Part shown: one piece after another, positions 8,210-64,000 of the stretch
Layout of the letters: every line of letters starts with the position of its first letter
How positions within the stretch are numbered: position 1 is the stretch's first letter
Source of the DNA: Escherichia coli
Lineage (GTDB): Bacteria; Pseudomonadota; Gammaproteobacteria; Enterobacterales; Enterobacteriaceae
Length of the DNA: 64,000 nucleotides
Assembly (NCBI RefSeq): GCF_003019035.1
Contig: NZ_CP027447.1
Direction: 5' to 3' (one strand)
Translations under genes and position numbers: made by a program
Notes under the pieces: model-generated
Told to the model about the DNA's origin: nothing
Seen by the model: the letters and a program-made list of their open reading frames with translations, nothing else
The model's database searches: none

Positions 8210-8751
8210 TTGATTTTTACTCCAATACCCGAAACCACCAGCCATACTTCATTTGCCGCAGCGGCCAACTGCTGGTTTACCCGCCCGGCAATATCACGAA
8301 AATGTCGTGCCAGACGACTCTCCGGCACAATCCCCATTCCCACTTCGTTAGTCACTAATACAACCTTTGCGGGGCAACGTTGGCAGGCAGCAATCAACGA
8401 CTGAATCTCAGCATTAATCGCCTGTTCCATCGCCTGATAATCCCATTCATCAGGGTCTTTATCGCCGCCATAATCAAACAACAGATTAGTCACCATTGTG
8501 GTAACGCATTCCAGCAGCACAGCCTCATTCGGGTTAATGTCTGCATGAATTAATTCATCAAGATGTTGCCAGCGCTCCACTGTGCGCCAGTGCGCCGGGC
8601 GGCCTTGCCGATGATGTTCTATCCGTGCAGCCATCTCATCATCAAGGATTTGCGAGGTAGCGATATACAGAACCTGTGAAGAGTCCCCAATAAGCGCCTC
8701 TGCGTGGCGACTCTTCCCGCTCCGTGCGCCCCCCGTCACCAAAATCATCAT
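8206..8751 (-). CDS. cobU: Adenosylcobinamide kinase / adenosylcobinamide-phosphate guanylyltransferase
   Basis: 181-aa ORF with P-loop ([20 protein letters not shown]…). Confidence 0.92.
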
Positions 8752-8884
8752 ACCGACTCCTGATTCAAATGTATGATGGTATTCATTGAACAGAACAATG
8801 GATCCCCCACCGTTGCTGACCGCAAAACATTTACGCGATTAATACTGCGCGTAATATAATTAAAAATCCAGCATTCTCAATCCA

Positions 8885-10721: not shown

Positions 10722-10923
10722 GATAAAACCTCCCAGTTAATTTATTGTTATAGCAAAACAATTGTTTTACATTTAATCTTCACATCATCCTTGATGATTT
10801 ACTGACGAGAAGCACAAAGGACAATAACAAAAGCCTCCGTGAAGCGGGAGACTTTTTAATAAGTTCGGAAAGCAGATCACAAACAGTAAAAAAATAAACG
10901 TTTATAACTGCCAGATTATTTCG

Positions 10924-11733
10924 TTATTCGCTGATTTCTTTAGGCGTTACACTATTGACAGGTAAATTCTTTGCAATGAGATAGCGATAAATCGCCGCAC
11001 CAACACATGCCCCAATGATCGGTGCAATAATGGGTACAATGAAATAAGGAATATTGCGTCCACCAGTCATCGCAATTTCCCCCCAACCCGCAAACCAGGT
11101 GAAAATTTTAGGTCCAAAATCACGCGCTGGATTCATGGCAAAACCGGTTAATGGTCCGGTAGAAGCACCAATAACAGCAACCAGAATACCAATGAGTAAA
11201 GGCGCAAGCGGTCCTTTGGGTACGCCATTACCGTCATCGGTCAACGCCATAATCAACCCCATTAACATGGACGTTATGACCACTTCGACCAACGCAGCTT
11301 GCCATACATTAATCGCCGCTGCTGGATAAGTACTGAAGATACTGGCGAGTTGTAAACTTTCTGCGCTACCACGCACTATATTGTGAGCCGATTCAAAATC
11401 GGTAAACAAACTGCTGTAGAGAGAATATGCCAGAACCGCACCACCAAAGGCACCCGCTAATTGCGCCACACAAAATGGCAGCACTTTACGGGCTGGGAAA
11501 GAGGCAAACAGCCACAGAGCAATGGTAACTGCCGGGTTGAGATGAGCGCCGGAAATACCTGCCGTAAGGTAAACAGCAAGCGAAATCCCTAACCCCCATA
11601 TGATACAAATTTCCCACAGTCCCAGACTTGCCCCGGCAACTTTCAGGGCGCACAAACAACCAATGCCAAAAAAGAGGAACAGTCCGGTGCCCAAAAACTC
11701 GGCAACGCATTGCGCCTTGAGTGAATCATTCAT
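10924..11733 (-). CDS. pduF: Propanediol diffusion facilitator (MIP/aquaglyceroporin family)
   Basis: MIP-family ORF with NPA motif (…GAHLNPAVT…); start set at MNDSLKAQ…; divergent from pduA. Confidence 0.88.
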   Translation of the reverse strand: MNDSLKAQCVAEFLGTGLFLFFGIGCLCALKVAGASLGLWEICIIWGLGISLAVYLTAGISGAHLNPAVTIALWLFASFPARKVLPFCVAQLAGAFGGAVLAYSLYSSLFTDFESAHNIVRGSAESLQLASIFSTYPAAAINVWQAALVEVVITSMLMGLIMALTDDGNGVPKGPLAPLLIGILVAVIGASTGPLTGFAMNPARDFGPKIFTWFAGWGEIAMTGGRNIPYFIVPIIAPIIGACVGAAIYRYLIAKNLPVNSVTPKEISE

Positions 11734-45437: not shown

Positions 45438-46421
45438 TTACTTCACGTTGTAATTACGCAGAGCGTTACGCCCCAACACAATCCCCGCGCCCACCATACC
45501 GCCCAGCAGCACTGCCAGAATCAAGGTGATTGCTTTCTTCGGGCTATCGCGACGAATTGGCAGTGTGGGTTTCATAACGTAACGGTAGGCATGAATATCA
45601 AGATCATCAACCTTCAGACTTTCGATATCCAGCAGGTTTTGACGAGTCTGATAATAGTTTGGCGAGAACACAAGCGGACGAGTCGCTTCGTGCTTAATCA
45701 TCGACCCCAGTGCTTCGCTACCTAACAAAAGCAACGTGTCCTGAGTAATATTTTCACCAGTCTGCTGAATCTGCGGCTTTGTTACCTGCGCCTGATTCGC
45801 ATACTGCAACGCTTCCTGAATCTGGCGGATACGCAGCGTTTTTTGCTCCTGAGCCACCACTTCCTGAGTTTTCAGGGAATCCTGCAATGTTTTCATGCCC
45901 AACGCAATATTATCCTTCAGGTCCTTTTCCAGCTCTTCATTCACTCGGTCATCAACTTGTTGAATGTATTCAGCCAGCTTTTTCTGTGCATCCGCCGCCG
46001 TTTTCCCAACATAAGAAACAGCTAACGGTAACGGCTGGTTTTTAACAGCGGGCTCGATGGTCAGTTTTTCGCGTTCTTCCTGATTATCCAGCGTTTCCGC
46101 TAATGCAGAGAAAGCGGAACTGAAGCGACCAATCAACGCCTCCTGTAAATCAGCTACTTTTGGCGCAGCCTGGCCATAAATTACATTCATGGCGTTGTTA
46201 TAGCCGGCAATTTGCCCCACATCAGGTTGAGTGACAATGGCTGTTGATGTCCATTGCTCTTTCGCTACTGCCAGGTATCCAATAGCCAACACGATAGCCA
46301 CAATGACTGTGGCGATAATGGTCATCTTACCGCGCCACAGTTGTACCAGTAAATCAATTAAATCAATCTGTTCCGGGTCATTGTTGTGCCCAGAAATATT
46401 ATTATTTTCAACTTTCATCAT
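45438..46421 (-). CDS. wzzB: O-antigen chain-length determinant (polysaccharide co-polymerase)
   Basis: 327-aa ORF with two TM segments flanking a periplasmic coiled-coil region; very similar to my memory of E. coli WzzB (Cld). Confidence 0.9.
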   Translation of the reverse strand: MMKVENNNISGHNNDPEQIDLIDLLVQLWRGKMTIIATVIVAIVLAIGYLAVAKEQWTSTAIVTQPDVGQIAGYNNAMNVIYGQAAPKVADLQEALIGRFSSAFSALAETLDNQEEREKLTIEPAVKNQPLPLAVSYVGKTAADAQKKLAEYIQQVDDRVNEELEKDLKDNIALGMKTLQDSLKTQEVVAQEQKTLRIRQIQEALQYANQAQVTKPQIQQTGENITQDTLLLLGSEALGSMIKHEATRPLVFSPNYYQTRQNLLDIESLKVDDLDIHAYRYVMKPTLPIRRDSPKKAITLILAVLLGGMVGAGIVLGRNALRNYNVK

Positions 46422-47914: not shown

Positions 47915-47949
47915 TAGCAAAAAAAAGCCCGGCGATAAATGCCGGGCCT
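47915..47949 (-). terminator. Candidate gnd terminator
   Basis: Minus-strand hairpin gcccggcatttatcgccgggc followed by ttttttt. Confidence 0.55.
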
Positions 47950-47973
47950 TAGTTTATTACTGATTAAATCAGA

Positions 47974-49380
47974 TTAATCCAGCCATTCGGTGTGGAATAC
48001 ACCTTCTTTATCAATGCGCTTATAGGTATGTGCACCGAAATAGTCACGCTGCGCCTGGATCAAGTTTGCTGGCAGTACTGCGGCACGATAGCTGTCATAA
48101 TAAGCAACCGCTGCAGAGAAGGTAGGTACTGGAATGCCGTTCTGCACCGCATAAGCAAGAACATCACGCAGAGCTTGCTGGTAATCGTCGGCAATTTTCT
48201 TAAAGTACGGGGCTAACAGCAGGTTAGCGATCTTCGGATTTTCAGCGTAAGCATCAGTGATTTTCTGCAGGAACTGAGCGCGGATGATACAGCCAGCACG
48301 GAAGATCTTCGCGATTTCACCATAGTTCAGATCCCAGTTGTACTCTTCAGACGCGGCACGTAGCTGTGAGAAGCCCTGAGCGTAAGAAACAATCTTACCC
48401 AGATAAAGCGCACGACGAACTTTCTCAATGAACTCAGCTTTATCGCCTGCTGGTTGTGCTTGCGGACCGGACAGTACTTTAGACGCTGCAACACGCTGCT
48501 CTTTGAGAGAAGAGATGTAACGTGCAAACACTGATTCAGTGATCAGTGACAGAGGCTCACCGAGATCCAGTGCGCTCTGGCTAGTCCACTTACCAGTACC
48601 TTTGTTAGCTGCCTCATCCAGAATCACATCGACCAGGTAGTTACCGTCTTCATCTTTTTTGGTGAAGATATCTTTAGTGATGTCGATCAGGTAGCTGCTC
48701 AGTTCACCGTTGTTCCACTCGGTAAAGGTTTGTGCCAGTTCTTCGTTAGAGAGATTCAGACCACCTTTCAGCAGAGAATAGGCTTCAGCAATCAGTTGCA
48801 TATCACCGTATTCAATACCGTTGTGAACCATCTTCACATAGTGACCTGCGCCATCGGCACCAATATAGGTAACGCACGGTTCGCCATCTTCAGCCACGGC
48901 GGCGATTTTGGTCAGGATAGGTGCAACCAGTTCATAGGCTTCTTTCTGCCCACCAGGCATGATAGAAGGTCCTTTCAGCGCGCCCTCTTCACCACCGGAA
49001 ACACCCGTACCGATGAAGTTAAAGCCTTCTGCAGAAAGCTCCCGGTTACGACGAATAGTATCCTGGAAGAAGGTATTACCACCATCAATGATGATATCTC
49101 CTTTATCGAGATATGGTTTAAGGGAATCAATAGCAGCATCCGTGCCTGCACCTGCTTTCACCATTAACAGGATGCGACGAGGCGTTTCCAGAGATTCAAC
49201 GAACTCTTTCACCGTATAGTAAGGAACCAGTTTCTTGCCTGGATTTTCAGCAATCACTTCTTCCGTCTTTTCACGGGAACGGTTGAAAATAGAGACGGTA
49301 TAACCACGGCTTTCGATGTTGAGCGCGAGGTTGCGTCCCATCACTGCCATACCGACGACGCCGATCTGTTGCTTTGACAT
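47974..49380 (-). CDS. gnd: 6-phosphogluconate dehydrogenase (decarboxylating)
   Basis: 468-aa ORF ([42 protein letters not shown]…). Confidence 0.94.
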
Positions 49381-49573
49381 TGTTTACTCCTGTCAGGGGT
49401 GGTCACCGCGGGGTTGCGCGGCTTGAATATGAAACAGATGTTAACTCAAGTTACATGAATGTGTGTAGTGCTGAATTTCATTAATGCAACAAATACCGTT
49501 CATCTTCCTTTATACAGACATCCACTTGTAACCAAACCTACGCGCACATATAAGCGAAGATAAATCTATAACA

Positions 49574-50998
49574 TCAAGAAATTAAAGATATAATATTCCC
49601 AAGCACATTCGTAACATATTGCTTAGCCTGATTTTCATCACTGCCTTCAGCGTAACAACGGAGTTCAGGGGCATTTCCGGAAGGACGGAGATGTATAATA
49701 TCACCATTAGTTAAAATAAATCTTGCACCATCCGTTTCATCAATAGTGGAACAGGATAATGATTCATACCCTAATTTATTAAAGAAATTATTGGGTGATG
49801 AAATGGCATTTTTTATAATTTTCTGACTTGACTCTGAAGGAAAGTTTTTCACTCTATCTGACCAAGTGAATCGCTGTGGAAGATTATTAACCAGTTGAGA
49901 GATAGTACTATTGCGAGAAGCTATTAAGAGCATTAACGCTGGTAATACTGCATCTCGAGTAGGTAACGCATTTAATTCTTTGCCATTAATTTGTAAATCG
50001 GAGGCAAGCAGAAAACCGCCATTAGCTTCAAAACCAGCGACTGAATCAAATTGTTTAGCAAGTTCTGAAAACGCTGCAATCACATAAGGAGAGCCAATTT
50101 TAGTCCGTTGTATATTTGCAAATTTATGAGATTGTTCAATTGCTGTATTACAACTCACTGGAATAGCCAACGCCTTGATATTAAGTTCAATAGCCGTAAG
50201 TAATCCCAGAATATCGCCTCTTAGCCATTCACCATTTTCATCGGCAACTAAAGGGCGATCACCATCACCATCTGTTGAGAAAATTGCATCGAGATTGTAT
50301 TTTTTAGACCACTCTCTTGCAAGTAGACGATCTTCTTCGCTAACTGCTTCCGTATCAATAGGAACGAACTCATCACTTCTACCGAGGGAGATGACCTCAG
50401 CACCCAATTGATTAAAAAGTGGAGCATATAAATCTCGTCCTGCACTAGAATGTTCATAGATCCCAATTCTCTTCCCCTTTAAAATATCGGAATTAAAAAG
50501 AGAAACATAACGTTCCAGGTAGCAATCCGCACCTTGAGTACTTGTTTCAAGATGAGGTAATACATCTACAGGAGAAAAAACATATTCACTATTTACTATT
50601 GCTAACTCATCCTCTTTTGTGATTTCACCATCTGGACGGTAAAATTTCAAACCATTACGGTCAAAAGGTATGTGACTACCGGTAACCATTATGCAGGGGA
50701 TGTTTTTCTGTATGGAATAATGAGCTAATGCAGGGGTCGGAATTACACCATGATATTCAACAGCGAACCCATGTTGTTTGATAGCGAACGCGCATGCCTG
50801 AGCAATTTCATAACTACTCGGGCGGTTGTCAATGGCTAAAGCAACTTTATTAAAATTGTATTTGTCATCAATAACAGAAAGAAACGCATGACTGAAGGCT
50901 GCACAAACATCATGGGTAAAATCGATGACTAAACCACGAGCACCACTAGTGCCGAAAGCAATATTGCTATCGGTAATGATTTTGTTAGCATTTAACAT
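49574..50998 (-). CDS. manB: Phosphomannomutase
   Basis: 474-aa phosphohexomutase-family ORF (…CIMVTGSHIPFDRNGLKF…); first gene on the gnd side of the AT-rich O-antigen cluster. Confidence 0.85.
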   Translation of the reverse strand: MLNANKIITDSNIAFGTSGARGLVIDFTHDVCAAFSHAFLSVIDDKYNFNKVALAIDNRPSSYEIAQACAFAIKQHGFAVEYHGVIPTPALAHYSIQKNIPCIMVTGSHIPFDRNGLKFYRPDGEITKEDELAIVNSEYVFSPVDVLPHLETSTQGADCYLERYVSLFNSDILKGKRIGIYEHSSAGRDLYAPLFNQLGAEVISLGRSDEFVPIDTEAVSEEDRLLAREWSKKYNLDAIFSTDGDGDRPLVADENGEWLRGDILGLLTAIELNIKALAIPVSCNTAIEQSHKFANIQRTKIGSPYVIAAFSELAKQFDSVAGFEANGGFLLASDLQINGKELNALPTRDAVLPALMLLIASRNSTISQLVNNLPQRFTWSDRVKNFPSESSQKIIKNAISSPNNFFNKLGYESLSCSTIDETDGARFILTNGDIIHLRPSGNAPELRCYAEGSDENQAKQYVTNVLGNIISLIS

Positions 50999-51003
50999 GA
51001 TGA

Positions 51004-51750
51004 TTACTTCTTAATAAATTGAGGAAGTTTGGATAGATTTTTATACGCTAAAGCTATTGGCCAGATAATACCATTCTGTTTCATAGCGCGAATATCTTCC
51101 ATTGATTTATTGATCATGGAAGATACTGAGCGATTGCTAATTCCACCAACACGCATTTTCACTAATACTTTTGGTAAGTACGCTATTGAAATACGCTGTT
51201 TTAAAATATAACGTAATAATGAGTCATAATCAGCAGATATTCGGTAATCTAATGAAAAACAACCAAACTGACTATAACAATCGCGTTTCATATAAAATGA
51301 TGGGTGTGGCGGCATCCAACCTAGTTTCATCTTCAAACGGCTAAATGAGCCACTCTTCCATAATCTAATACGTTTAGTTGTATCATTTTTGGCAACATAC
51401 TCCAAATCACCATAAACAGCATCACACCCTGAACTTTCAAATGTTTTTACTATATCTGCAATAGCATCGTCATAAGCAAGTAAGTCATCAGAGTGCAAAA
51501 ATCCAATTATATCACCAGAAGCTGCTTGAATACCTTTATTCAGTGCATCATAAATGCCATTGTCGGGTTCGCAAATGATTGTTGAAACTCTTGTACATTT
51601 ACTCTTGATTAGCTCTATTGTATTATCTTTCGATGCCCCATCTACAACTATATATTCAATATCTGAATGTGTTTGTTTTTCCAGAGAGAGTAATGTATCA
51701 AGAAGCGTTTTTTCACTATTATAAGTTGCTGTGATAATTGAAATCCGCAT
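51004..51750 (-). CDS. Family-2 glycosyltransferase (GT-A fold)
   Basis: 248-aa ORF with MRISIITATYNSEKTL…VVDGASKDNT…DNGIYDALNKG…, a typical GT2 signature. Confidence 0.75.
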   Translation of the reverse strand: MRISIITATYNSEKTLLDTLLSLEKQTHSDIEYIVVDGASKDNTIELIKSKCTRVSTIICEPDNGIYDALNKGIQAASGDIIGFLHSDDLLAYDDAIADIVKTFESSGCDAVYGDLEYVAKNDTTKRIRLWKSGSFSRLKMKLGWMPPHPSFYMKRDCYSQFGCFSLDYRISADYDSLLRYILKQRISIAYLPKVLVKMRVGGISNRSVSSMINKSMEDIRAMKQNGIIWPIALAYKNLSKLPQFIKK

Positions 51751-53156
51751 TAGTATCCAACTCCAGAAGAAGAAACTCTTATAACATCATCCTCTTCCAA
51801 GTAGACTCCTGATCTAACCTCAATTATTTCAAGTGGGATCTTGCCAGGATTTTCAATGGCATGTGGAACACCAACAGGTATATATGTTGATTCATTTTCT
51901 GAAACAAGATAAGTTTTCTCCTCAAGATGAACTTTAGCTGTCCCCGAGACAACAATCCAATGTTCAGTACGATGGTAATGGATCTGCTTAGCGGTAATGT
52001 GACCCGGTAATACAATCACATGTTTAACCTGAAAGCGTTGCCCTTCAGCTATAGTGTCATGACTGCCCCAAGGACGAAAAATTTCCCGATGTTGTAAATA
52101 TTCTGTTCGATTATTCTTTTTAAGCTGAGCTACGATGTTTTTAACTTGCTGAACTTTATCTTTATGAGCAACTAATACTGCATCTTTCGTTTCAACGACA
52201 ACCAAATCCTTTACGCCCACGGCCCCAATAAGTCTATGCTGCGAATAAAGATAACTATCTGTAGCATCCTCAACCAAAACATCACCACGAATGGCATTGC
52301 CGCTTTGGTCTTTTGAACTTATTTCCCACAGCGCAGACCATGACCCAACATCACTCCATTGCGCATCCAATGGTACGACCACAGCTTCAGCTGTTTTTTC
52401 CATAACGGCATAGTCGATTGACTCTTCAGGGCAGCAAGAAAAAGAAGAGTTATCCAAGCGGATAAAATCTAAATCTTGAGTCGAGGAAGCTAAGGATTGC
52501 TGACAACTCTCTAGAATATCTGGACGGAATTTTTTTAGTTCATCGATGAATACAGATGCTCTGAACATAAACATTCCACTATTCCAAAGATAACCGCCAT
52601 CTGACAAATACCGCTGAGCTAATTCTAGCTCTGGCTTTTCAACAAAAGCTGCAACTTTATAACCTTGCCCACTAAGTGGATCACCTGACTTAATATAGCC
52701 ATACCCTGTCTCTGGAGCTGTTGGAACGATGCCAAATGTGACCAACTTACCTTGCTGCGCAAAGTCCTTCGCGGCCAAAACTGCTGTAATGAAACTATTC
52801 TCATCCTGAATTTCATGGTCAGCCGCAAGAACCAAAAGTATAGGATCCTCTCCACTTGCCGTTGCCTGAAGCGCTGCAAGGGCTACAGCAGGTGCCGTAT
52901 TGCGCCCAACAGGCTCAAGCAAAATCCCACTATGCTTTAAACCAACTTTACGTAATTGTTCAGCAACAATGAAACGATGTGATTCATTACAAATGATCAA
53001 AGCAGGATTGTGTTCAATCTTTTCTAGCCGTCGCAAAGTCTCTTGCAACATAGTTAAGCGGCTATTTAAAGACAGAAATTGTTTCGGATAAAGTGTACGT
53101 GAAAGAGGCCATAATCTGGTACCAGATCCACCGGCCATGACAACGGGAAGTAGCAT
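51750..53156 (-). CDS. manC: Mannose-1-phosphate guanylyltransferase (with C-terminal cupin domain)
   Basis: 468-aa ORF ([28 protein letters not shown]…). Confidence 0.88.
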   Translation of the reverse strand: MLLPVVMAGGSGTRLWPLSRTLYPKQFLSLNSRLTMLQETLRRLEKIEHNPALIICNESHRFIVAEQLRKVGLKHSGILLEPVGRNTAPAVALAALQATASGEDPILLVLAADHEIQDENSFITAVLAAKDFAQQGKLVTFGIVPTAPETGYGYIKSGDPLSGQGYKVAAFVEKPELELAQRYLSDGGYLWNSGMFMFRASVFIDELKKFRPDILESCQQSLASSTQDLDFIRLDNSSFSCCPEESIDYAVMEKTAEAVVVPLDAQWSDVGSWSALWEISSKDQSGNAIRGDVLVEDATDSYLYSQHRLIGAVGVKDLVVVETKDAVLVAHKDKVQQVKNIVAQLKKNNRTEYLQHREIFRPWGSHDTIAEGQRFQVKHVIVLPGHITAKQIHYHRTEHWIVVSGTAKVHLEEKTYLVSENESTYIPVGVPHAIENPGKIPLEIIEVRSGVYLEEDDVIRVSSSGVGY

Positions 53157-53161
53157 ATCTA

Positions 53162-53623
53162 TTACCTTGATATAAAATAATTTTTGGTATATTGATGAAC
53201 TGTAGTGCTATTAAGCAACGTTACTACATCAAACCACTTGTAGGAATTATGCTGAATCGTTGGTAGGCGAAGTTGCTGCGGATTAATTTGAATTTCATAT
53301 CCATGCACTACGTAGTGTGTAGAAAAATCTACTTCAGAAAAATTGTCATTGTAAAAGTGTTCATACACACCAAGAAATATGGCCTCACCAAGACTAGTTT
53401 GAACGCCTAACTCTTCAAATGTGATCCTTTTAAAAGCATCCTCGAATGACTCGTCCTTAAAAATTCGCCCTCCAGGCACAAACCAATAATTTTTTGCGGG
53501 GCGATTCAGGCGCTGCCCAAGCAGCGCCTCTCCTTTATCGTTTCTAATTACGAGGTCAATCGAGATTAGAGGAGTATGCTTGACTATTGTTTTAAATAAC
53601 TCATATTCTAATCTCTTTTTCAT
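53162..53623 (-). CDS. gmm: GDP-mannose mannosyl hydrolase (NUDIX)
   Basis: 153-aa NUDIX-family ORF adjacent to fcl and gmd. Confidence 0.75.
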   Translation of the reverse strand: MKKRLEYELFKTIVKHTPLISIDLVIRNDKGEALLGQRLNRPAKNYWFVPGGRIFKDESFEDAFKRITFEELGVQTSLGEAIFLGVYEHFYNDNFSEVDFSTHYVVHGYEIQINPQQLRLPTIQHNSYKWFDVVTLLNSTTVHQYTKNYFISR

Positions 53624-53625
53624 AA

Positions 53626-54591
53626 CTATCCCCGAAAAGAATCAATATTCTCAAGAAACCATTTATATGTTAATGATAGACCTTCATGTAAATTATAGCG
53701 ATGTTGCCAGCCCAAGTTTTTGAGTCGGGTAACGTCCATAAGTTTTCGCGGGGTGCCATCTGGTTTGGTCGCGTCAAAAACAATTTTTCCTTGATAACCC
53801 ACTACAGAAGCCATTGTTTCAGCCATTTCACGTATAGAACAATCCACCCCCGTACCTACATTAATATGAGATAACATTGGTTGTGTATTTTGTTGATAAA
53901 TTGCGTCCTCTAACTCCATCACATGAACCGAGGCAGCAGCCATATCATCAACATATAAAAACTCACGCATCGGCATTCCCGTGCCCCAGACAATAACTTC
54001 TTGTGCACCACTTTCTTTTGCCTCATGGAATCTACGCATAAGCGCCGGAATAACATGGGAGTTTTCAGGATGGAAGTTATCATTCGAACCATAAAGATTA
54101 GTAGGCATTACACTTCTATAATCGCGACCATATTGACGATTATAAGACTCACATAATTTTATGCCCGCAATCTTAGCAATTGCGTATGGCTCATTAGTTG
54201 GCTCAAGTATGCCCGTCAAAAGTGCAGACTCTTTCATCGGCTGCTCAGCAAATTTTGGATAAATACAGCTAGAGCCTAAAAAAAGTAATTTTTGAATTCC
54301 AACCTTGTGAGCTGAATGTATAATATTACTCTCAATCATGAGATTCTGATAAATGAATTCTGCTGGAAATGTATTATTGGCATAAATACCACCTACTTTT
54401 GCCGCAGCAAGATAAACCTGATCAACCCTCTCTCTCTCAAAAAATGCCTCAACATCCTTCTGCACGGTCAGATCGAGTTCTTTGTGTGTTTTAACCACTA
54501 ACTCGATATCATCACGCAGCGATAATTGTCGGCAAATAGCAGAGCCAACCATGCCCTGGTGCCCAGCAACATATACTCTTTTCTTTATCAT
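53626..54591 (-). CDS. fcl: GDP-L-fucose synthase (GDP-4-keto-6-deoxy-D-mannose 3,5-epimerase / 4-reductase)
   Basis: 321-aa SDR ORF ([23 protein letters not shown]…) directly downstream of gmd. Confidence 0.85.
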
Positions 54592-54594
54592 GTA

Positions 54595-55728
54595 TTAACG
54601 CTCCAGAGAAACCGAAACATCATAACCATGGCTTTTAAGAAGTGCATGTTGTTTCGCTTTTAACAAATCGCTAGCAACCATTTCTGCACACATCTCTTCA
54701 ACTGTAATCTCTGGTTCCCAGCCTAATAGATTTTTTGCTTTTGCAGGGTCACCTAAGAGTGTTTCAACTTCAGCAGGACGGAAATAACGAGGATCAACCC
54801 GAACTATAACGTCTCCAACATTTACACCAATAGCACAATCGGAAATTTTATTAACTACTGTGGCTATCTCATCTACACCCTCACCAGAGAATTCAAGTTC
54901 AAGTCCGACTTCTTTAGCAGCCATACGGACAAATTCACGCACAGATATCTGTTTACCTGTGGCAATGACAAAATCCTCTGGATGATCTTGCTGAAGCATC
55001 ATCCATTGCATGCGAACATAATCTTTAGCGTGTCCCCAGTCACGCAACGAATCCAGATTACCCAAATATAAGCATTGTTCGATCCCCTGAGAAATATTAG
55101 CTATTGCACGAGTAATTTTACGGGTAACAAAAGTTTCTCCACGGCGTGGCGATTCATGGTTAAAAAGAATACCATTACAAGCATATATACCATAAGATTC
55201 ACGGTAGTTAACTGTTATCCAGTAAGCATACATCTTAGCTACAGCATAAGGCGAACGCGGGTAGAATGGAGTTGTTTCACGCTGAGGAATCTCTTGCACT
55301 AAACCAAAAAGTTCTGAAGTAGATGCTTGATAGAAACGTGTTTTTTTCTCCAGCCCACAGATTCGTATTGCTTCTAATAAACGTAATGTCCCTATTGCAT
55401 CTACATCTGCTGTATATTCTGGTGACTCGAATGACACTGCGACATGGGATTGTGCACCAAGGTTATAAATTTCATCCGGTTGAATTTCTTGGATTAAACG
55501 GATCAGATTCGATGTATCTGTTAAATCCCCATAGTGTAAAATAAAATTAGGCTCATCAACGAATCGTGATTGATATATATGATCAATTCTATCAGTGTTA
55601 AATGACGATGCTCGGCGTTTTATACCATGTACTTCATAACCTTTTTCAATAAGAAATTCTGCAAGATATGAACCATCTTGTCCAGTTACGCCTGTGATAA
55701 ATGCAACTTTTTTATTCATTTTAATCAT
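54595..55728 (-). CDS. gmd: GDP-mannose 4,6-dehydratase
   Basis: 372-377 aa ORF (…[20 protein letters not shown]…[18 protein letters not shown]…); start is either MIKMNKK or MNKK. Confidence 0.9.
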
Positions 55729-55737
55729 GTTATGTTC

Positions 55738-56769
55738 CTAAATATTCAACTCATTATAAACTTTAATCGTTTCATTAACACATTTTGACCATGAAAATTT
55801 TTGCGCCTGCAGTAAACCTCTTTCGATCATAACATTTCTTTTTAAATTAACTAATTCTAAAGCTTCTTTTAACGTAAACTCATTAATATCATCAATATAA
55901 ATAGGCGCATTCCCCCCTACTTCCGGCAACGAGGATGTGTTTGCACAAATAACTGGACATCCGGCCTGCATAGCTTCTAGGACAGGTATTCCAAACCCCT
56001 CATAACTGGAAGGGTAAACAAGTGCATATGCAGTATTATACTGTATATTTAAATCTTCATTACTCAAAAATGTAAAATGTTCATATCTATTTTTTAAATA
56101 TTTTTCAAGGAGTTCTCTTTCATATTTTTTAAGCGAGCCTCCGCCTACAATTGTAAGCTTTAAGCCATGTAATTTCCCTACAGCTTTGACTGCAAGAACG
56201 AAATTTTTATAACCTTCTCTGGCACCGACAAACAAAACTGAATTATTTACTCTCATATCAGACATGTTAGAAATATGTTTATATGATGGGGATACACCAT
56301 TATAAATCACTCTAATTTTATCTTCGCTAATTGGACAGTACTTAAGTAAATCTCTAGCAGTGTTGTTTGAAATACAAATTACGATATCACTATTCTTGAT
56401 AGCATGATATTTTTGAAGAGAATGAATAAATTTTGACATTCCTCCCCTGTATTTTTCATAGGTGAAATCATGAACAGTTGTAACATTTTTCACATTCAAA
56501 TTAGGACTTTTATGAACTCGATAATAACTTGAGTGTAAAACCCTAGTTTTAATATCACTTACATTTCTATATCTTTCTAAAATTCTTGGCTTACGATATT
56601 GCAACTTTAAGTCGCTTGTATCAAACTCAAATTCTTTATTTTTATACAATAGAATTTCAGCTTGGTAATTTGATTTCACCATTCCTTGGATCAACTCATT
56701 AAAGTATACACTTATTCCACCAAATGATTGGAGATTATAAATAATCCCATCGATAGTTACCATTATCAT
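55738..56769 (-). CDS. Family-4 (GT-B, retaining) glycosyltransferase
   Basis: 343-aa ORF with C-terminal EX7E-type motif (…YPSSYEGFGIPVLEAMQAGCPVI…). Confidence 0.8.
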   Translation of the reverse strand: MIMVTIDGIIYNLQSFGGISVYFNELIQGMVKSNYQAEILLYKNKEFEFDTSDLKLQYRKPRILERYRNVSDIKTRVLHSSYYRVHKSPNLNVKNVTTVHDFTYEKYRGGMSKFIHSLQKYHAIKNSDIVICISNNTARDLLKYCPISEDKIRVIYNGVSPSYKHISNMSDMRVNNSVLFVGAREGYKNFVLAVKAVGKLHGLKLTIVGGGSLKKYERELLEKYLKNRYEHFTFLSNEDLNIQYNTAYALVYPSSYEGFGIPVLEAMQAGCPVICANTSSLPEVGGNAPIYIDDINEFTLKEALELVNLKRNVMIERGLLQAQKFSWSKCVNETIKVYNELNI

Positions 56770-58022
56770 CGCCCTCGCAAGGTAATACGTTCGATTAGAA
56801 CGAACAATATCAAAAAGAAGATCAGTAACAATACATATGCCGGCCCAGCAAAATAAGTTCCAAATGAAGGTGAAATGAGAATTATAGAAAGCAAAAAAAA
56901 GGATGCAGAGTTCGTAATTACTTTTGCATTAAACATTTTAAGCTTAGCAAAAATATAGCCATAAAAGATATTCATAGGTGAAAGAAAAGTTAAAATGATC
57001 AGTCCAACATATCCATAATCAACAAAATTATCCATCCCTTTTGAAAAAGCAGGTGTATGCCCCGACTCTGCAGCTCCTGGATAATAGATTTCATTTACAT
57101 GCAGAAATCCATATACAAAAGGTTTATCAGGAAACAAACCTCTCGGTATATAAGACCAAAATTGGCTGAAATAGACTGTGCCATTGAAAAACTTAACCAC
57201 ACCTTTATCAATATCTTGTAGCAAATAAATACTGTTTTGATACTGGTCAAAATAAGACAATACTACATCGACATTCATATTTCCAATAGCTAAAAATAAA
57301 TTATAGAGAATGGCACACGCTGCCAGGGGTGTAACTAAAATCAGGCCAAATTTTAGAAATCTAGATTTATTAAGACTTAACACTGCAAGATAAAAAATCG
57401 CAAATGAAAGAATAAAGGTTTTCGATCCAAGAAAAAAAACCAAGGTACAATAGAATATCGCGCATAAAAATAATTTTATTTCCGAGCGTAAAGCCAACGC
57501 CCTGGAAAAATAAGATACCGAAAGCATACTTAAAGAAAAGGCATATAAAACACCATTACCTTCTCGATAGTTTTGATAACCATCCCTGGGATTCGTCAAC
57601 CATCCAGAAATACCTATTTCTGACTTTGAAGAAAGAAGAACAAATAATGTAATAAACAGAACCAATGTAATATTTGATATTCTTTTTAATTTTGTATGCG
57701 AAATTAAGCAAGTTAAATAGATCTCTCTATTTTTGAATGCTATATTAAAAATAAAATAAAAGAAAATTATAGATAAAACACCCACAAAAGAGTATATGTT
57801 ATATATAAATAAAGCCTCATTATAATATTGATTTAAAGCAAAGTCTGAACCGTAGAAAAGAGGAGCCAAAATATTTTCCAATAGAAAAACCGGAAATAAA
57901 ATAATGGCGTAAATGGTAAAGGGATTGATAATTGTAAGTCTTAGCGTTTTCGTCGCTAATAAAGAAAAAGAATAATATAGTACTATAGCTAGTGTAACAT
58001 TTAAACAATATATTATTACCAC
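56766..58022 (-). CDS. wzy: O-antigen polymerase
   Basis: 418-aa, highly hydrophobic multi-TM ORF with a large loop, AT-rich, no recognisable enzyme motif; typical of Wzy inside an O-antigen cluster. Confidence 0.65.
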   Translation of the reverse strand: MVIIYCLNVTLAIVLYYSFSLLATKTLRLTIINPFTIYAIILFPVFLLENILAPLFYGSDFALNQYYNEALFIYNIYSFVGVLSIIFFYFIFNIAFKNREIYLTCLISHTKLKRISNITLVLFITLFVLLSSKSEIGISGWLTNPRDGYQNYREGNGVLYAFSLSMLSVSYFSRALALRSEIKLFLCAIFYCTLVFFLGSKTFILSFAIFYLAVLSLNKSRFLKFGLILVTPLAACAILYNLFLAIGNMNVDVVLSYFDQYQNSIYLLQDIDKGVVKFFNGTVYFSQFWSYIPRGLFPDKPFVYGFLHVNEIYYPGAAESGHTPAFSKGMDNFVDYGYVGLIILTFLSPMNIFYGYIFAKLKMFNAKVITNSASFFLLSIILISPSFGTYFAGPAYVLLLIFFLILFVLIERITLRGR

Positions 58023-58032
58023 ATCCTCCCCC

Positions 58033-58842
58033 CTATCTTAAACCGAATAATTTGCGCTTAATTGATTTTGTTTTTTGATATAATGCTTGAGGAACAATCA
58101 CTTTAAATAAAACTTGCAATGAATTATAGACAGCAAATTTTATTTTATATGATAAGGGCATATGAATATTATTTTTAGCTAGAATATAAGCAATTTCTTT
58201 CTTGACTAATTTTTTATTAGATTCATTTGAACTTACACCCGAAGCATCCATTATGGATACAGGAAAATTCACATAATGCATCGTAGATGGATCTATTGTT
58301 CTTATCATAAAATCACTATCAGCAGCAATTTTTAGTGTTGTATCAAAGCGATTAGCATTATCTTTAAAAAAGCTAGAATGCTGGAAAGTACCCTGATGAG
58401 GAGGAAGTGAAGGCCGACCACATTCCCACTTTTTCTTTATTTTTCCGTAAACTCCAACTATATTATCTTCATCACTAAAATATACATCACCATATATAGT
58501 TGTTGCACTCATATTTTCGTGAATGGCATTTGCTATTTTTGAAAGAGTATTATTTTCATAGAATGTATCGCCAGCTCCCATAAAAATAACCCAATCGCCA
58601 TTTATGTGAGGAAGAGCTTTATTCCAAGCGTCGTATATTCCTTGATCAGATTCGCATAAAAAATAATCTATAATATCAATATATCTATAAATATATTCTA
58701 GTGTTGATTTGTTAGAGTTGCCGTCTATAACAATCCATTGAATATTACAATAATTTTGATTTTTAATAGATTCCGCAGTCTTGCAGAAATCTTCCTCACA
58801 ATTATACGTCGATGTTATTATAGTAATCTGTAAGCCATTCAT
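58033..58842 (-). CDS. Family-2 glycosyltransferase (GT-A fold)
   Basis: 269-aa ORF with ITIITSTYNCEEDF…VIDGNSNKST…DQGIYDAWNKA…; paralogous to the 51004..51750 ORF. Confidence 0.75.
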   Translation of the reverse strand: MNGLQITIITSTYNCEEDFCKTAESIKNQNYCNIQWIVIDGNSNKSTLEYIYRYIDIIDYFLCESDQGIYDAWNKALPHINGDWVIFMGAGDTFYENNTLSKIANAIHENMSATTIYGDVYFSDEDNIVGVYGKIKKKWECGRPSLPPHQGTFQHSSFFKDNANRFDTTLKIAADSDFMIRTIDPSTMHYVNFPVSIMDASGVSSNESNKKLVKKEIAYILAKNNIHMPLSYKIKFAVYNSLQVLFKVIVPQALYQKTKSIKRKLFGLR

Positions 58843-58848
58843 CTTAAC

Positions 58849-59559
58849 TCACTTATTTTTCATGGCAATATATTTTAATCTTAATTCTTTAATTAAGGTC
58901 TTTACTTTACTATCAGTGGAATACTCAATATTAAACGTGCCAGAGACTCCTCTTATTTTGGGAATAGTTGTTCCAATAACTCCTTTTAATTTATTATTTT
59001 TAATTTGCTCAAAAAAAATGTGTTCTAAATAAACACCATCAAGGTCACGCACAGATTTATAAGAATTAGCAAAAAAGTCCCAATATATTTTTTTATTTAC
59101 AACATAAAACCTTGTATCAATCATATTTTCATTCAGAAAAGGAACTGGTATAAAAAAAGCTTTACCATTGAATGCTTTTATACATTGCTTATAATTATCG
59201 ACGTATAGTTTTGATGTTATTTTTGCGAAACTTTCAGCATTAGACAAATAGCGACTATTCATTAATGCATACTCAATTATTTCACCCTCTCCGTAACCTT
59301 TACCATAAGATTTAACACTTTCTGTATCATTTTTGAAATGTATTATCTCGATCGAATCTTTATTAAGTATTTGTTTATCATTATGAATATCTTTCGTCAA
59401 ATCATAATCACTACCATCACATATTACTATAGAATCAGCATTCTTAGACAATTCTCTTATCGCTTTCAATGTATGTAATAATCTTGAATTTTCATCAGAA
59501 AGATTTGTAAGAGGAGCATTAGGTGAGATACAAGAAGTCACTAATACTGGGATTTTCAT
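58849..59559 (-). CDS. Hypothetical protein within the O-antigen cluster (possible novel glycosyltransferase or modifying enzyme)
   Basis: About 236 aa from MKIPVLVTSCISPNAPLT… (ORF track starts at an upstream Met that would overlap wzx); no motif I can assign; soluble-looking. Confidence 0.5.
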   Translation of the reverse strand: MKIPVLVTSCISPNAPLTNLSDENSRLLHTLKAIRELSKNADSIVICDGSDYDLTKDIHNDKQILNKDSIEIIHFKNDTESVKSYGKGYGEGEIIEYALMNSRYLSNAESFAKITSKLYVDNYKQCIKAFNGKAFFIPVPFLNENMIDTRFYVVNKKIYWDFFANSYKSVRDLDGVYLEHIFFEQIKNNKLKGVIGTTIPKIRGVSGTFNIEYSTDSKVKTLIKELRLKYIAMKNK

Positions 59560-60800
59560 TTTTTCTTTTCCAGCCTCAACGAAATTAACATTAGTATAAA
59601 ATAATCGGCGGTGACTCTTGCGCTCCAGGCATAAGCCACACCTGCTACAGAAAAATACATAATTGAAAAATATAAAACTAGCAGATATGGAATACATTCA
59701 ACAAGATGAATGAGACCCGTAATTTTTGCATAACCTTTCGATTGGATTTGAGCAAATGGAACTTGAGCAAGAGAGTTGAATACAAAACCTACTAATAATA
59801 TTTGAAATATATAAGGACTCTCAGCGCTATATTGTTTTCCAAGCCATAAAGTTATAATATCACTAGCCTTCAAAGAAAACATAATAGATATAACTATACT
59901 AGTTACACTTATTAATAACGTAGCCTCTTTTATTATTTTTTTTCGCTCATTTTTTGTATTATTCTTGCATAGAGCAGGAAAAATTGTCCTTGCTATAGTT
60001 GTCGGTAATATAAGTAACTTTGAAATTGCATCCGCAGGAGCAATATATAACGAAGCTTTAGCAGGGCCAACTGCATTTGATAAGATAAATCGGTCAATAT
60101 TTGTAAGCAATGGGTTAATTATACTACTAATACTCGCCCATCCTCCAAAACTTAATAGTGCTTTTGTTTTACTTAGACTAAAATCCATTGTAAGCCTATT
60201 ATTTCTAAAAACAAAGAACACGCTTAAAAGAGCACCAGTTATTCTCGCAATCACCAATCCCAAAGTAGCATTAAGCAAACCAACATTTCCATGAATGAAA
60301 ATAACTGGTAGTAGCGCAGTTAACACACCTGTAATTGTTTTTTGTACATTTAATAATTTGAATTTTTCATATCCTTCTAATATCCCCCAACAAACCATAT
60401 TAAGAAGATAAAATGGCAGACAGTAGGATAAAACACTTATAGCATATGCAACACTTTCAGTTTGTTCCGGACCACTAATTAAGGATGCAATCTTATGGTT
60501 GCAGTAATAAAAAATTACGGATACAACAACACCAATAGATAATGTTAATAAAAATGATGTTGTAATTATTTGACTGATTGCCTTTTTGTCGTTTTTATTT
60601 AATGATATTTCACGTACAACGGCTCGCGAAAGTCCGAGATCAAATATACTTGCGTATCCAACTATTGTAAAAAACATTAAAAAAAAGCCAAAGTTAGTTA
60701 TTCCTAACTCCCTTGCCAAATACCCCATCGCAGGTATTGACAATAAAGTTGGGATTGCATACCCAGCCAAATTTATTAAACTATTTATTTTAATACTCAT
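59556..60800 (-). CDS. wzx: O-antigen flippase (MOP / polysaccharide-biosynthesis family)
   Basis: 414-aa ORF with about 12 predicted TM segments; position next to the rml genes is typical. Confidence 0.75.
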   Translation of the reverse strand: MSIKINSLINLAGYAIPTLLSIPAMGYLARELGITNFGFFLMFFTIVGYASIFDLGLSRAVVREISLNKNDKKAISQIITTSFLLTLSIGVVVSVIFYYCNHKIASLISGPEQTESVAYAISVLSYCLPFYLLNMVCWGILEGYEKFKLLNVQKTITGVLTALLPVIFIHGNVGLLNATLGLVIARITGALLSVFFVFRNNRLTMDFSLSKTKALLSFGGWASISSIINPLLTNIDRFILSNAVGPAKASLYIAPADAISKLLILPTTIARTIFPALCKNNTKNERKKIIKEATLLISVTSIVISIMFSLKASDIITLWLGKQYSAESPYIFQILLVGFVFNSLAQVPFAQIQSKGYAKITGLIHLVECIPYLLVLYFSIMYFSVAGVAYAWSARVTADYFILMLISLRLEKKK

Positions 60801-60816
60801 TTTTAATTATCTTTTG

Positions 60817-61359
60817 TCAATAATTATTTTGTATAAATGGAGTACCCAAACAATCTTTTTGTGATATAAGAGGTTCTTTGTATAATTGCCAATCTATGTT
60901 AAGTAAAGCATCATTCCAAATAATACATTTCTCATGTTCTTTTGAGTAAAAATTATTGGTCTTATACAATATTTCTGAACCTTCTTCTTTTACATAAAAA
61001 CCATGCGCAAACCCTTCCGGGATCCACAACTGGCGCTTATTCTCAGCAGACAAATTCACTCCAACCCATTTCCCAAATGTAGGTGACGATTTACGAATAT
61101 CAACCGCAACATCAAAAACTTCACCAACAACACAGCGCACCAGTTTTCCTTGAGCATAAGGTTCTAACTGATAATGCAACCCTCGTAAAACACCTTTTCT
61201 GGACTTAGAATGATTGTCCTGAACAAACTCAACCTTACGCCCTACAACCTCTTCGAAAACTTTCTGATTAAAGCTTTCCATAAAGAAGCCACGTTCATCC
61301 CCAAAAACTTTTGGTTCAAAAATCAGCACATCAGGAATTTCAGTTTTAATTACGTTCAT
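60817..61359 (-). CDS. rmlC: dTDP-4-dehydrorhamnose 3,5-epimerase
   Basis: 180-aa ORF (MNVIKTEIPDVLIFEPKVFGDERGFFMESFNQKVFEE…). Confidence 0.9.
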   Translation of the reverse strand: MNVIKTEIPDVLIFEPKVFGDERGFFMESFNQKVFEEVVGRKVEFVQDNHSKSRKGVLRGLHYQLEPYAQGKLVRCVVGEVFDVAVDIRKSSPTFGKWVGVNLSAENKRQLWIPEGFAHGFYVKEEGSEILYKTNNFYSKEHEKCIIWNDALLNIDWQLYKEPLISQKDCLGTPFIQNNY

Positions 61360-61363
61360 CTTA

Positions 61364-62242
61364 TTAATAACCTTTAATCATTTTGAGCAGATACTGACCA
61401 TAAGCATTTTTCTTCAACGGTTCGGCTAATACTTTTACCTGCTCAGCATCAATAAACCCTTTACGATAAGCAATTTCTTCCGGACAGGAAACCTTTAGTC
61501 CCTGGCGCTCTTCAATGGTGGCAATGAAGTTGCTTGCTTCAATAAGACTTTGATGCGTCCCTGTATCCAGCCATGCATAGCCACGCCCCATCATAGCGAC
61601 AGACAAACGTCCTTGTTCCATATAAATACGGTTAATATCGGTAATTTCCAGTTCACCTCGGGCAGAAGGCTTAAGGTTTTTCGCCATTTCCACAACGTCA
61701 TTGTCATAGAAATAAAGCCCAGTAACCGCATAGTTACTTTTTGGTTCCAGCGGTTTTTCTTCCAGGCTAATTGCAGTACCGTTATTATCAAACTCCACGA
61801 CACCATAGCGTTCAGGATCATTAACGTGATAAGCAAATACCGTTGCACCGATTTCTTTGTTAACAGCAGCTTCCATTAATTTTGGCAAGTCGTGTCCATA
61901 GAAGATATTATCACCAAGCACAAGTGCACAATCATCACCTCCAATAAAGTCTTCACCAATGATAAACGCTTGCGCCAGGCCATCCGGACTCGGTTGTACT
62001 TTATACTGTAGATTAAGCCCCCATTGGCTCCCGTCCCCCAACAAATGTTGGAAACGCGGTGTATCCTGTGGAGTACTGATAATAAGAATATCGCGAATAC
62101 CCGCTAACATAAGCGTTGAAAGCGGATAATAAATCATAGGTTTATCATAAATCGGCAACAGTTGTTTACTCACGGCCATAGTCACAGGATAAAGACGAGT
62201 GCCGGAACCACCAGCTAAAATAATACCTTTACGCGTTTTCAT
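61364..62242 (-). CDS. rmlA: Glucose-1-phosphate thymidylyltransferase
   Basis: 292-aa ORF ([60 protein letters not shown]…). Confidence 0.93.
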
Positions 62243-62300
62243 TTCACCATTCCTTTTAATTCATCCCGCTCTGGCATCATAAGCGAGATGCAAAAATTTG

Positions 62301-63200
62301 TTAAATTGCCGTAGTCGTAAATAATTCGTTGAGCATTCGTTTCACACCCACCTGCCAGTCAGGCAAGACAAGCGCAAAGTTCTGCTGAAACTTTTCTGTA
62401 TTGAGGCGAGAGTTATGGGGTCGACGGGCTGGTGTGGGATAGGCCGTTGTTGGCACGGCGTTAAGTTTGTTAAGAGCAAGGTTAATCCCTGCTTTGCGCG
62501 CTTCTTCAAATACCAGAGCGGCATAATCGTGCCAGGTTGTTGTACCGCCAGCAACCAGATGGTACAAACCAGCAACTTCTGGTTTGTCTACTGCTACGCG
62601 AATGGCATGAGCGGTGCAATCAGCCAGCAATTCGGCACCTGTTGGTGCGCCAAACTGATCGTTTATCACAGCCAGTTCTTCGCGCTCTTTTGCCAGACGC
62701 AACATTGTTTTGGCGAAGTTATTTCCTTTACCTGCATATACCCAGCTGGTACGGAAAATAATATGCTTCGCGCAATGTTTCTGTAACGCTTTTTCTCCGG
62801 CTAGTTTAGTTTCACCATAAACATTCAAAGGTGCTGTAGCATCCGTCTCCTGCCACGGTATTTCACCGGTTCCCGGAAATACGTAGTCAGTAGAGTAGTG
62901 AATAACCCAAGCGCCGACTTCATTAGCTGCTTTTGCAATCGCTTCGACACTTGTCGCGTTAAGTAATTGTGCAAATTCCGGTTCTGATTCCGCTTTGTCT
63001 ACTGCAGTGTGAGCAGCCGCATTAACAATAACATCAGGGCGAATTTTTTTGACAGTTTCAGCTACACCTTCGGGATTACTAAAATCACCACAATAATCAG
63101 TGGAGTGAACATCAAGAGCAATCAGATTACCCAGCGGTGCCAGAGCACGCTGCAGTTCCCAACCTACCTGCCCTGTTTTGCCGAATAGGAGGATATTCAT
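62301..63200 (-). CDS. rmlD: dTDP-4-dehydrorhamnose reductase
   Basis: 299-aa ORF ([33 protein letters not shown]…). Confidence 0.92.
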   Translation of the reverse strand: MNILLFGKTGQVGWELQRALAPLGNLIALDVHSTDYCGDFSNPEGVAETVKKIRPDVIVNAAAHTAVDKAESEPEFAQLLNATSVEAIAKAANEVGAWVIHYSTDYVFPGTGEIPWQETDATAPLNVYGETKLAGEKALQKHCAKHIIFRTSWVYAGKGNNFAKTMLRLAKEREELAVINDQFGAPTGAELLADCTAHAIRVAVDKPEVAGLYHLVAGGTTTWHDYAALVFEEARKAGINLALNKLNAVPTTAYPTPARRPHNSRLNTEKFQQNFALVLPDWQVGVKRMLNELFTTTAI

Positions 63201-64000
63201 TACTGGCGGCCCTCATAGTTCTGTTCAATCCACGACTGATAAGCACCGCTTTTCACATTCTCAACCCAATTTGTATTAGCCAGATACCATTCCACCGTTT
63301 TACGAATACCGCTCTCAAACGTTTCTTGCGGTTTCCAGCCCAATTCGCGGCTAATTTTATCGGCATCAATTGCATAACGGCGATCATGCCCTGGGCGATC
63401 AGCAACATAGGTAATTTGCTCACGATAAGATTTCTCTTTCGGGACTATCTCATCCAACAAATCACAAATAGTGAACACTACGTCGATGTTTTTCTTTTCG
63501 TTGTGTCCACCAATGTTATAAGTTTCGCCTGCTTTACCTTCGGTTACGACGGTATATAACGCTCGAGCATGATCCTCTACATACAACCAGTCGCGGATCT
63601 GATCTCCTTTGCCATAAATAGGTAATGCCTTACCTTCCAGTGCATTAAGAATAACCAGTGGAATAAGCTTTTCCGGGAAATGATAAGGACCATAGTTGTT
63701 CGAGCAATTAGTCACAATGGTCGGTAAACCATAAGTACGTTTCCATGCGCGAACCAAATGATCGCTGGAAGCTTTAGAAGCAGAATATGGACTACTTGGC
63801 GCGTATGCTGTCGTTTCCGTAAATAGCGGCAACGTTTCATTGCTATTTACTTCATCCGGATGGGGTAAGTCACCATACACCTCATCAGTAGAAATATGAT
63901 GAAAACGGAAGTTTTTTTTCTTTTCATCATCCAGACCAGACCAATAATTGCGCGCCGCTTCTAAAAGAACATAAGTACCCACAATATTGGTTTCAATAAA
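63200..64000 (-). CDS. rmlB: dTDP-glucose 4,6-dehydratase, C-terminal part (5' end beyond window)
   Basis: Reverse frame is open to the window edge; translation (…[28 protein letters not shown]…[33 protein letters not shown]…) is RmlB/RfbB-like; stop overlaps the rmlD start. Confidence 0.9.

Follow-up and report, generated by a model that had tools for sequence, protein, structure and literature searches.

This report concerns a pair of glycosyltransferase genes in a 64,000-nucleotide stretch of Escherichia coli DNA (contig NZ_CP027447.1 of RefSeq assembly GCF_003019035.1), referred to below as the window. Both genes belong to an O-antigen gene cluster and both encode proteins of glycosyltransferase family 2 (GT2). 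We call them A (51004..51750) and B (58033..58842). A preliminary description had read them as paralogues that arose by duplication within the cluster and then diverged in acceptor specificity. In our view A and B are very probably anciently diverged members of one fucosyltransferase-like sub-clade of GT2, that of WrtF, WbdO and WcaE, which were joined by mosaic assembly of cassettes and not by copying in place.

The cluster is the one already known for the E. coli O36 O antigen, of the Wzx/Wzy type and encoded on the minus strand. The identity of the locus follows from its complete DNA match to O36 genomes and from the labels on wzx and wzy. Over positions 50900-59800 of the window, two E. 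coli chromosomes match with 100% identity and six more with at least 98.9%, and in these matching genomes RefSeq labels both wzx and wzy 'O36 family'. The minus strand holds every gene from about 45.4 kb to the end of the window. The order of transcription is rmlB, rmlD, rmlA, rmlC, wzx, a gene for a 236-residue protein, B, wzy, a family 4 glycosyltransferase (GT4) gene, gmd, fcl, gmm, manC, A, manB, gnd, ugd and wzz; beyond wzz lies the his operon, on the plus strand. The features are as follows:

49574..55728, minus strand: GDP-L-fucose cassette of manB, wfeY, manC, gmm, fcl and gmd (annotation of an identical genome)
49574-50998, minus strand: manB
51004..51750, minus strand: gene A, wfeY, 248 amino acids (aa), putative GDP-L-fucose:N-acetylglucosamine-diphospho-undecaprenol (GDP-L-Fuc:GlcNAc-PP-Und) alpha-1,3-fucosyltransferase (open reading frame (ORF), PF00535, WfeY literature)
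51750-53156, minus strand: manC
53162-53623, minus strand: gmm
53626-54591, minus strand: fcl
54595-55728, minus strand: gmd
55738..56769, minus strand: GT4 glycosyltransferase, retaining, GT-B type (Pfam Glycos_transf_1 and Glyco_transf_4)
56766..58022, minus strand: wzy, O36 O-antigen polymerase, intact ORF of 418 aa (annotated 'O36 family O-antigen polymerase')
58033..58842, minus strand: gene B, 269 aa, O36-specific GT2 of the WrtF/WbdO/WcaE-like clade, probable second GDP-sugar (fucose) transferase
58849..59559, minus strand: 236-aa 'hypothetical protein', probable fourth glycosyltransferase (GT-A fold, no Pfam family)
59556..60800, minus strand: wzx, O36 flippase (Pfam Polysacc_synt; annotated 'O36 family O-antigen flippase')
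60817..64000, minus strand: rmlC, rmlA, rmlD and rmlB of the dTDP-L-rhamnose pathway, rmlB running past the window end (annotation of an identical genome)

The presence and family of the two genes are as first described, and so is the layout: A lies between manC and manB, and the genes in the gap to B are wzy, the GT4 gene, gmd, fcl, gmm and manC. The stop codon of manC and the start codon of A overlap (TAATG). RefSeq labels both products 'glycosyltransferase family 2 protein' (identical genome). Both belong to CAZy GT2 and Pfam PF00535, inverting enzymes of the GT-A fold, and match the PF00535 model with 98.7 bits (A) and 69.0 bits (B) against a gathering score of 23.3. The signatures noticed earlier are found in the translations, as ISIITATYNS, YIVVDGASKD and CEPDNGIYDALNKG in A, and as ITIITSTYNC, WIVIDGNSNK and CESDQGIYDAWNKA in B. 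The pattern drawn from them is correct except at the residue preceding GIYDA, which is N or Q after an invariant D, so that the motif reads D[NQ]GIYDA.

BLASTP aligns A and B over 246 aa with 28% identity (89.7 bits, E 5e-26), and the best of 500 shuffles of B reached 37 bits. The likeness therefore far exceeds chance and is not confined to the N-terminal motifs. Generic GT2 controls (WcaA, O157 WbdN and three GT2 proteins from other polysaccharide loci) score 18-50 bits against A or B, usually over the N-terminal part only (about 40-200 aa). Homology of A and B within one GT2 sub-clade is thus well founded, at about 90 bits against 18-50 for generic GT2 pairs. Plausibly, the two share the type of donor and differ in the acceptor.

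A duplication within the cluster is another matter. Comparisons with databases, with background scores, by trees, of DNA and of synteny all contradict it. A search with B found more than 120 protein clusters (at 90% identity) from other taxa at 148 bits or more, and the best match outside E. coli was from Buttiauxella noackiae (52%). When representatives at 50% identity were searched exhaustively with B, 14,812 matched at E<=1e-10, and the 150th best scored 120 bits, above the A-B score. The search with A gave 7,988 matches. The best 120 were all at least 64% identical, and thousands are closer to A than B is. The median score of A against 120 members of the B family is 94.7 bits, and 85 of these outscore the co-resident B; the median of B against 120 members of the A family is 94.2 bits, and here 105 outscore the co-resident A. 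The A-B score in O36 thus falls below the median of comparisons between the two families across unrelated organisms. Pairs from the same cluster score 81-113 bits in five clusters that have both types, and cross-cluster pairs 79-108 bits.

The phylogeny gave the same answer: A and B of O36 were sisters in none of 100 neighbor-joining (NJ) bootstraps. (Distances for this tree were computed in numpy. The rooting by WcaA fell inside the A family, a long-branch artefact, and only the sister test and the bipartitions between families were used.) By blastn, no colinear DNA similarity was found between the two genes, and gene conversion between them was rejected on that ground. Hence A and B do not behave as recent paralogues of one cluster: they are not each other's closest relatives, and neither residual DNA similarity nor an excess of same-cluster similarity is seen. 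Pairwise identity, which had been proposed as the deciding measure, is above that of random GT2 proteins but not above background within the sub-clade. What survives of the earlier reading is paralogy within one sub-clade, with likely different acceptors, and what does not is the duplication within the cluster.

The two genes also differ in the company they keep. ORF A is WfeY. The glycosyltransferase gene between manC and manB has been named wfeY and is common to E. coli O36, O41, O156, O159 and O168 and a new serogroup; alpha-L-Fuc-(1->3)-D-GlcNAc is the sole disaccharide common to these serogroups, and its linkage has been given to WfeY (PMC10606467). The linkage is a putative assignment, resting on correlation in the literature. 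WfeY orthologues are recognized by the manC/manB position and by identity of at least about 90% to WfeY of other serogroups. A has both properties, whereas B has neither (28-29% identity). In the cluster of another serogroup (strain MDR_56), the GT2 flanked by manC and manB is 92% identical to A. The DNA from gnd through gmd, including A (47920-55721), is 88.9% identical between the two clusters, a similarity that breaks off at the gmd start, and the proteins of the cassette are 88-94% identical. The rml genes are 88% identical in DNA. In the MDR_56 cluster, B, the 236-aa protein and the O36 GT4, wzx and wzy are all without a homologue. These belong to a central block specific to O36 (55722-60995), where the genes, B among them, have a G+C content of 28-32%. 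As A is 92% conserved in a cluster without B, with similarity ending at gmd, it belongs to a portable GDP-fucose cassette, and B to the O36-specific block.

More distant clusters bear on the age of the pair. A Buttiauxella contig is gene-for-gene syntenic with the O36 cluster. Its proteins are identical to those of O36 to the extent of 55% (wzx), 51% (the hypothetical protein), 52% (B), 60% (wzy), 57% (GT4), 84% (gmd), 71% (fcl), 52% (gmm), 64% (manC) and 68% (A), and its own A and B are 35% identical (112 bits). Both GT2 genes were therefore present, and equally divergent, in the common ancestor of the O36 and Buttiauxella clusters. Methylophaga sulfidovorans and four metagenomic contigs (L007, L008, L092 and L093) carry B-type genes with 43-49% identity. 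Methylophaga, L007, L008 and L092 also have an A-type gene (38-42% identical to WfeY) and a GT4 homologue, while Methylophaga, L007, L092 and L093 also have gmd (74-78%) and fcl (50-68%). Homologues of the O36 GT4 (31-57%) accompany A-type and B-type genes in Buttiauxella, Methylophaga, L007, L008 and L092. In all, the two types co-occur in six clusters (O36, Buttiauxella, Methylophaga, L007, L008 and L092), and in Methylophaga the B-type gene (10001-10810) directly adjoins the A-like gene (10815-11567). Judged by these sequences, the split between A-type and B-type predates all these clusters. The pairing is old and probably functional, since the lineages recur with GT4 and gmd/fcl in distant Gammaproteobacteria.

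Two side observations concern these relatives. Many homologues of B (e.g., P0241, P0245, P0248 and P0251) are 536-705 aa long, a few exceed 1000 aa, and they contain two or three matched stretches. They look like natural tandem fusions of WcaE/WrtF-like GT2 domains, which bears on a tandem origin of such pairs. Also, a protein of about 319 aa, 39-40% identical to Gmd, is encoded beside a GT4 gene in Methylophaga (7920-8879), L007 (4091-5053) and L008 (4057-5013); O36 and Buttiauxella have rmlBDAC in its place. From its sequence it may be an Rmd-like GDP-4-keto-6-deoxymannose reductase, in which case the glycans of Methylophaga, L007 and L008 would contain a second GDP-derived 6-deoxyhexose (D-rhamnose or 6-deoxytalose).

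Why then do the two proteins look alike at their N-termini? The top NCBIfam model for both is that of WcaE (TIGR04009), at 67.5 bits for A and 61.5 bits for B, far below the cut-off of 369.2; by sequence they are relatives of WcaE without being WcaE itself. The best match of both among solved structures is 9OMH, that of WrtF (84 bits over residues 3-215 for A). WrtF of Rhizobium tropici CIAT 899 is an alpha-1,4-fucosyltransferase, the first structurally characterised fucosyltransferase of GT2 with a GT-A fold; the clade of GT2 fucosyltransferases comprises WrtF, WbdO, WcaE, GtfD and Bf4306 (PMC12595478). In WrtF the guanine is stacked on by Phe13 and hydrogen-bonded by the carbonyl of Val39 and by Asp66; Gly68 and Ile69 pack against guanine and diphosphate; Ile69, Tyr70 and Ile73 touch the fucose ring and its C6 methyl group; and Asp167 binds O3 of fucose (PMC12595478). 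These contact positions align with the three signatures, TxT(Y/F)N, VDGxS and DxGIYDAxNK. D66, G68, I69, Y70, D92, H142 and D167 (WrtF numbering) are kept in A, B, their orthologues, WcaE and WbdO, but they are not conserved in WbdN, a GT2 that uses UDP-glucose. A and B thus have the helix residues of the fucosyltransferase clade (D66-x-G68-I69-Y70) as well as D167 and H142. The signatures therefore mark a donor pocket that the clade shares and not a recent common origin. The scores agree: A and B give 90 bits with each other, comparable to the 57-98 bits of each with WrtF, WbdO or WcaE.

Three other accounts of the pair can be weighed against mosaic assembly. The resemblance could be nothing but the N-terminal motif likeness of any two GT2 proteins. 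The signatures do sit in the nucleotide-binding N-terminal half, which is general to GT2. Yet the alignment of A with B covers 246 aa including the C-terminal half, the control proteins stop at 18-50 bits over about 40-200 aa, and WbdN has no DxGIYDAxNK motif at all, so this account is hardly credible. Very improbable, too, is duplication of one GT2 gene within the O36 cluster, or its immediate ancestor, with later divergence of the acceptor. It would explain why A and B are full-length homologues with the same sub-clade motifs, 6.3 kb apart in one operon-like cluster. It would not explain why each of the two genes has many nearer relatives than its partner among proteins of other taxa, why their similarity is at or below the background between the families, why they are never sisters in the bootstraps and show no colinear DNA similarity, why the cassette of A is found in a serogroup without B, or why the lineages are found already separated in Buttiauxella, Methylophaga and three metagenomic clusters. 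A tandem duplication could, on the other hand, be ancient: the pair would have arisen in an ancestral fucose cluster, travelled together and reached O36 through a Buttiauxella-like ancestor. Co-occurrence in six clusters and adjacency in Methylophaga are in its favor, as are A-B scores of about 80-113 bits, slightly above those of B with WcaE, WbdO and WrtF (57-72 bits in the sampled set), and the many two-stretch homologues of 536-705 aa, which point to tandem fusions. However, the A and B families form a clade that excludes WcaE in only 5 of 100 NJ bootstraps, the score of A with WrtF (98 bits) is as good as that with B, and WfeY lacks a B-type partner in other E. coli serogroups, so that the two need not occur together. 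The same pattern would be expected if two clade members had been recruited independently to fucose-rich glycans. We consider an ancient tandem origin unlikely on balance, though a serious contender, and prefer old divergence followed by mosaic assembly.

What B transfers is less clear. That B is a second GDP-fucose transferase with an acceptor different from that of A is a proposition to which we give about even chances. The reading is based on its closest relatives, which lie directly downstream of gmd/fcl, and on the donor-pocket residues that it retains. Both gmd and fcl are beside the B-type genes of Buttiauxella, Methylophaga, L007, L092 and L093, and in L007, L092 and L093 the fcl and B-type frames overlap or abut. 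In a survey of 85 loci, gmd and/or fcl lay within 10 kb in 27, and rmlA or rmlC in 5. The loci came from a scan of genome contigs with a B-family profile and are mostly distant relatives (24-41% identity), many of which score equally with A and B and were assigned to other members of the clade; the scan served for the association with gmd/fcl versus rml and not as a source of further true B-type loci.

The competing possibility is that B is an L-rhamnosyltransferase using dTDP-beta-L-rhamnose (dTDP-beta-L-Rha), or a beta-hexosyltransferase, and resembles A through shared fold and sub-clade. The cluster has rmlBDAC and so needs a rhamnosyltransferase, and dTDP-beta-L-Rha, like GDP-beta-L-Fuc, is a donor of a beta-L-6-deoxyhexose. 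Several points tell against B, and in part A, as fucosyltransferases. The more distant members of the B family lack gmd and fcl nearby. B is unlike the verified fucosyltransferases at WrtF positions 89 and 191. Finally, Asn143 and Phe/Tyr191, reported as conserved in the five characterised members, are absent from both proteins, which have P and M (A) and Q and M (B); WbdO and WcaE also have Q at position 143 in the same alignment, so the Asn143 feature may depend on the alignment. Against the rhamnosyl or hexosyl alternative, B-type relatives (43-49%) are found in clusters that have gmd and fcl but no rml (Methylophaga, L007, L092 and L093) and are often translationally coupled to fcl, the guanine-binding Asp66 is invariant in the B family, and rml genes are rare near relatives of B (5 of 85 loci). 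The GT-A protein without a Pfam family that adjoins wzx and rmlC is, moreover, available as the rhamnosyltransferase. We regard a rhamnosyl- or hexosyltransferase as the less probable choice, and fucose as the better guess for B.

Two sequence features of the B-type proteins are of note. In the DxD region B has GAGD, invariant in 22 family members and a mix of the known GADD and N-A/S-G-D forms (A has HSDD and its relatives NADD). The B-type proteins also end in a helical extension of about 25 aa with a conserved basic tail (K-R-x-x-F-G-x-R), which is absent from A-type proteins, WcaE and WbdO and may be a membrane-interface or partner-binding element. It is conceivable, although we would not yet wager on it, that B-type proteins are an undescribed subfamily of GT2 fucosyltransferases (invariant G-A-G-D, P-x-H-Q, a basic C-terminal helix, typically fcl-coupled) and form with A-type and GT4 a horizontally mobile fucose-core module in E. 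coli O36, Buttiauxella, Methylophaga and uncultured metagenomic bacteria.

The scheme that we envisage for O36 is as follows. WfeY, whose gene is translationally coupled to manC within a portable GDP-L-fucose cassette common to several serogroups, would most likely move L-fucose from GDP-beta-L-fucose onto GlcNAc-PP-undecaprenol with inversion. The product would be alpha-L-Fuc-(1->3)-GlcNAc, with Fuc as the second sugar of the unit. B, from the low-G+C block with wzx, wzy, the GT4 and the Pfam-less GT-A protein, would most likely add a second GDP-derived 6-deoxyhexose, probably L-fucose.

The O36 antigen's structure and its gene cluster were published by Perepelov et al. (2014), as cited in PMC7685785. 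In the literature the O36 unit is described as a pentasaccharide that has a side branch of two residues and includes alpha-L-Fuc-(1->3)-GlcNAc. A pentasaccharide requires four transferases encoded in the cluster besides WecA, for which WfeY, B, the GT4 and the 236-aa protein are candidates. The last-named showed no match when searched against Pfam and NCBIfam, and its structural model (predicted local distance difference test score, pLDDT, 96) has a GT-A fold; it is the natural candidate for the rhamnosyltransferase of O36. A CK_II_beta Pfam match of a 282-aa version of this ORF (E 0.0023) was below the gathering score and judged spurious.

The two genes for polymerization and chain length deserve comment. 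The wzy ORF (56766-58022, minus strand) starts with GTG, is intact and is colinear with Buttiauxella wzy (60% over 400 aa). In RefSeq, wzy is nonetheless flagged a pseudogene ('frameshifted') in all three of the O36 genomes that were inspected, one of them 98.9% identical over the 8.9-kb query. The flag of the Prokaryotic Genome Annotation Pipeline (PGAP) could mean that wzy is broken, but the intact colinear ORF speaks against this, and for the same reason we take the flag as probably a systematic annotation artefact that the reference protein brings in. An internal stop that is flagged in addition for strain SCU-301 may be real. The window has an intact wzzB (45438-46421, minus strand), which is split by ISVsa5 (IS4-like) in the otherwise identical strain GPEC60-12-649 (positions 201-2519 of its locus); the window therefore stems from another O36 strain.

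Look-alike transferases in one O-antigen cluster need not imply local duplication; mosaic assembly can draw on an old and diversified clade. The practical value of this is modest. Descriptions of the O36 cluster and of gene A already exist, while B is a further member of a known enzyme clade; the sole, mildly novel lead is the recurrent module of A-type, B-type, GT4 and gmd-fcl genes, together with the GAGD variant. ORF A gains a published name and linkage. For B there is a testable prediction, that it is a second GDP-fucose-dependent transferase, and the WrtF structure of 2025 explains the motifs. If the B-type enzymes are confirmed, GAGD would inform on the way in which GT-A enzymes handle equatorially linked GDP-beta-L-fucose when they have no DxD-metal site. 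For serotyping and glyco-engineering, the wfeY cassette is portable between serogroups whereas B is specific to O36.

How does the locus compare with known systems? The mosaic O-antigen clusters of Enterobacteriaceae have the same plan as O36, in which rml and gmd..manB modules, about 88-89% shared, enclose a unique wzx..GT4 block. No difference is apparent, and the arrangement is that of the textbook. The WfeY proteins of O41, O156, O159, O168, isolate SD2019180 and Shigella dysenteriae type 4 have the same manC-manB position as A. Nothing substantive sets ORF A apart from them, and their function, for which a published assay was not found, is likewise assigned by correlation only. WbdO (E. 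coli O157), a verified GT2 alpha-1,4-fucosyltransferase, and WcaE (colanic acid), a putative fucosyltransferase, have the architecture of about 250 aa and the DxGIYDAxNKG motif of A and B, and share with B the x-A/S-G-D and H-Q motifs. They are only 25-40% identical to A and B (64-69 bits), however, and serve other acceptors in other clusters. WrtF differs further: it works in an O-polysaccharide pathway of the ABC-transporter type, where it fucosylates glucose. Its DxD region reads GADD, where A has HSDD and B has GAGD; its N143 is P in A and Q in B, and its F191 is M in both. The C-terminal alpha-domain of WrtF is divergent from those of A and B, and B has in addition the extra basic C-terminal helix.

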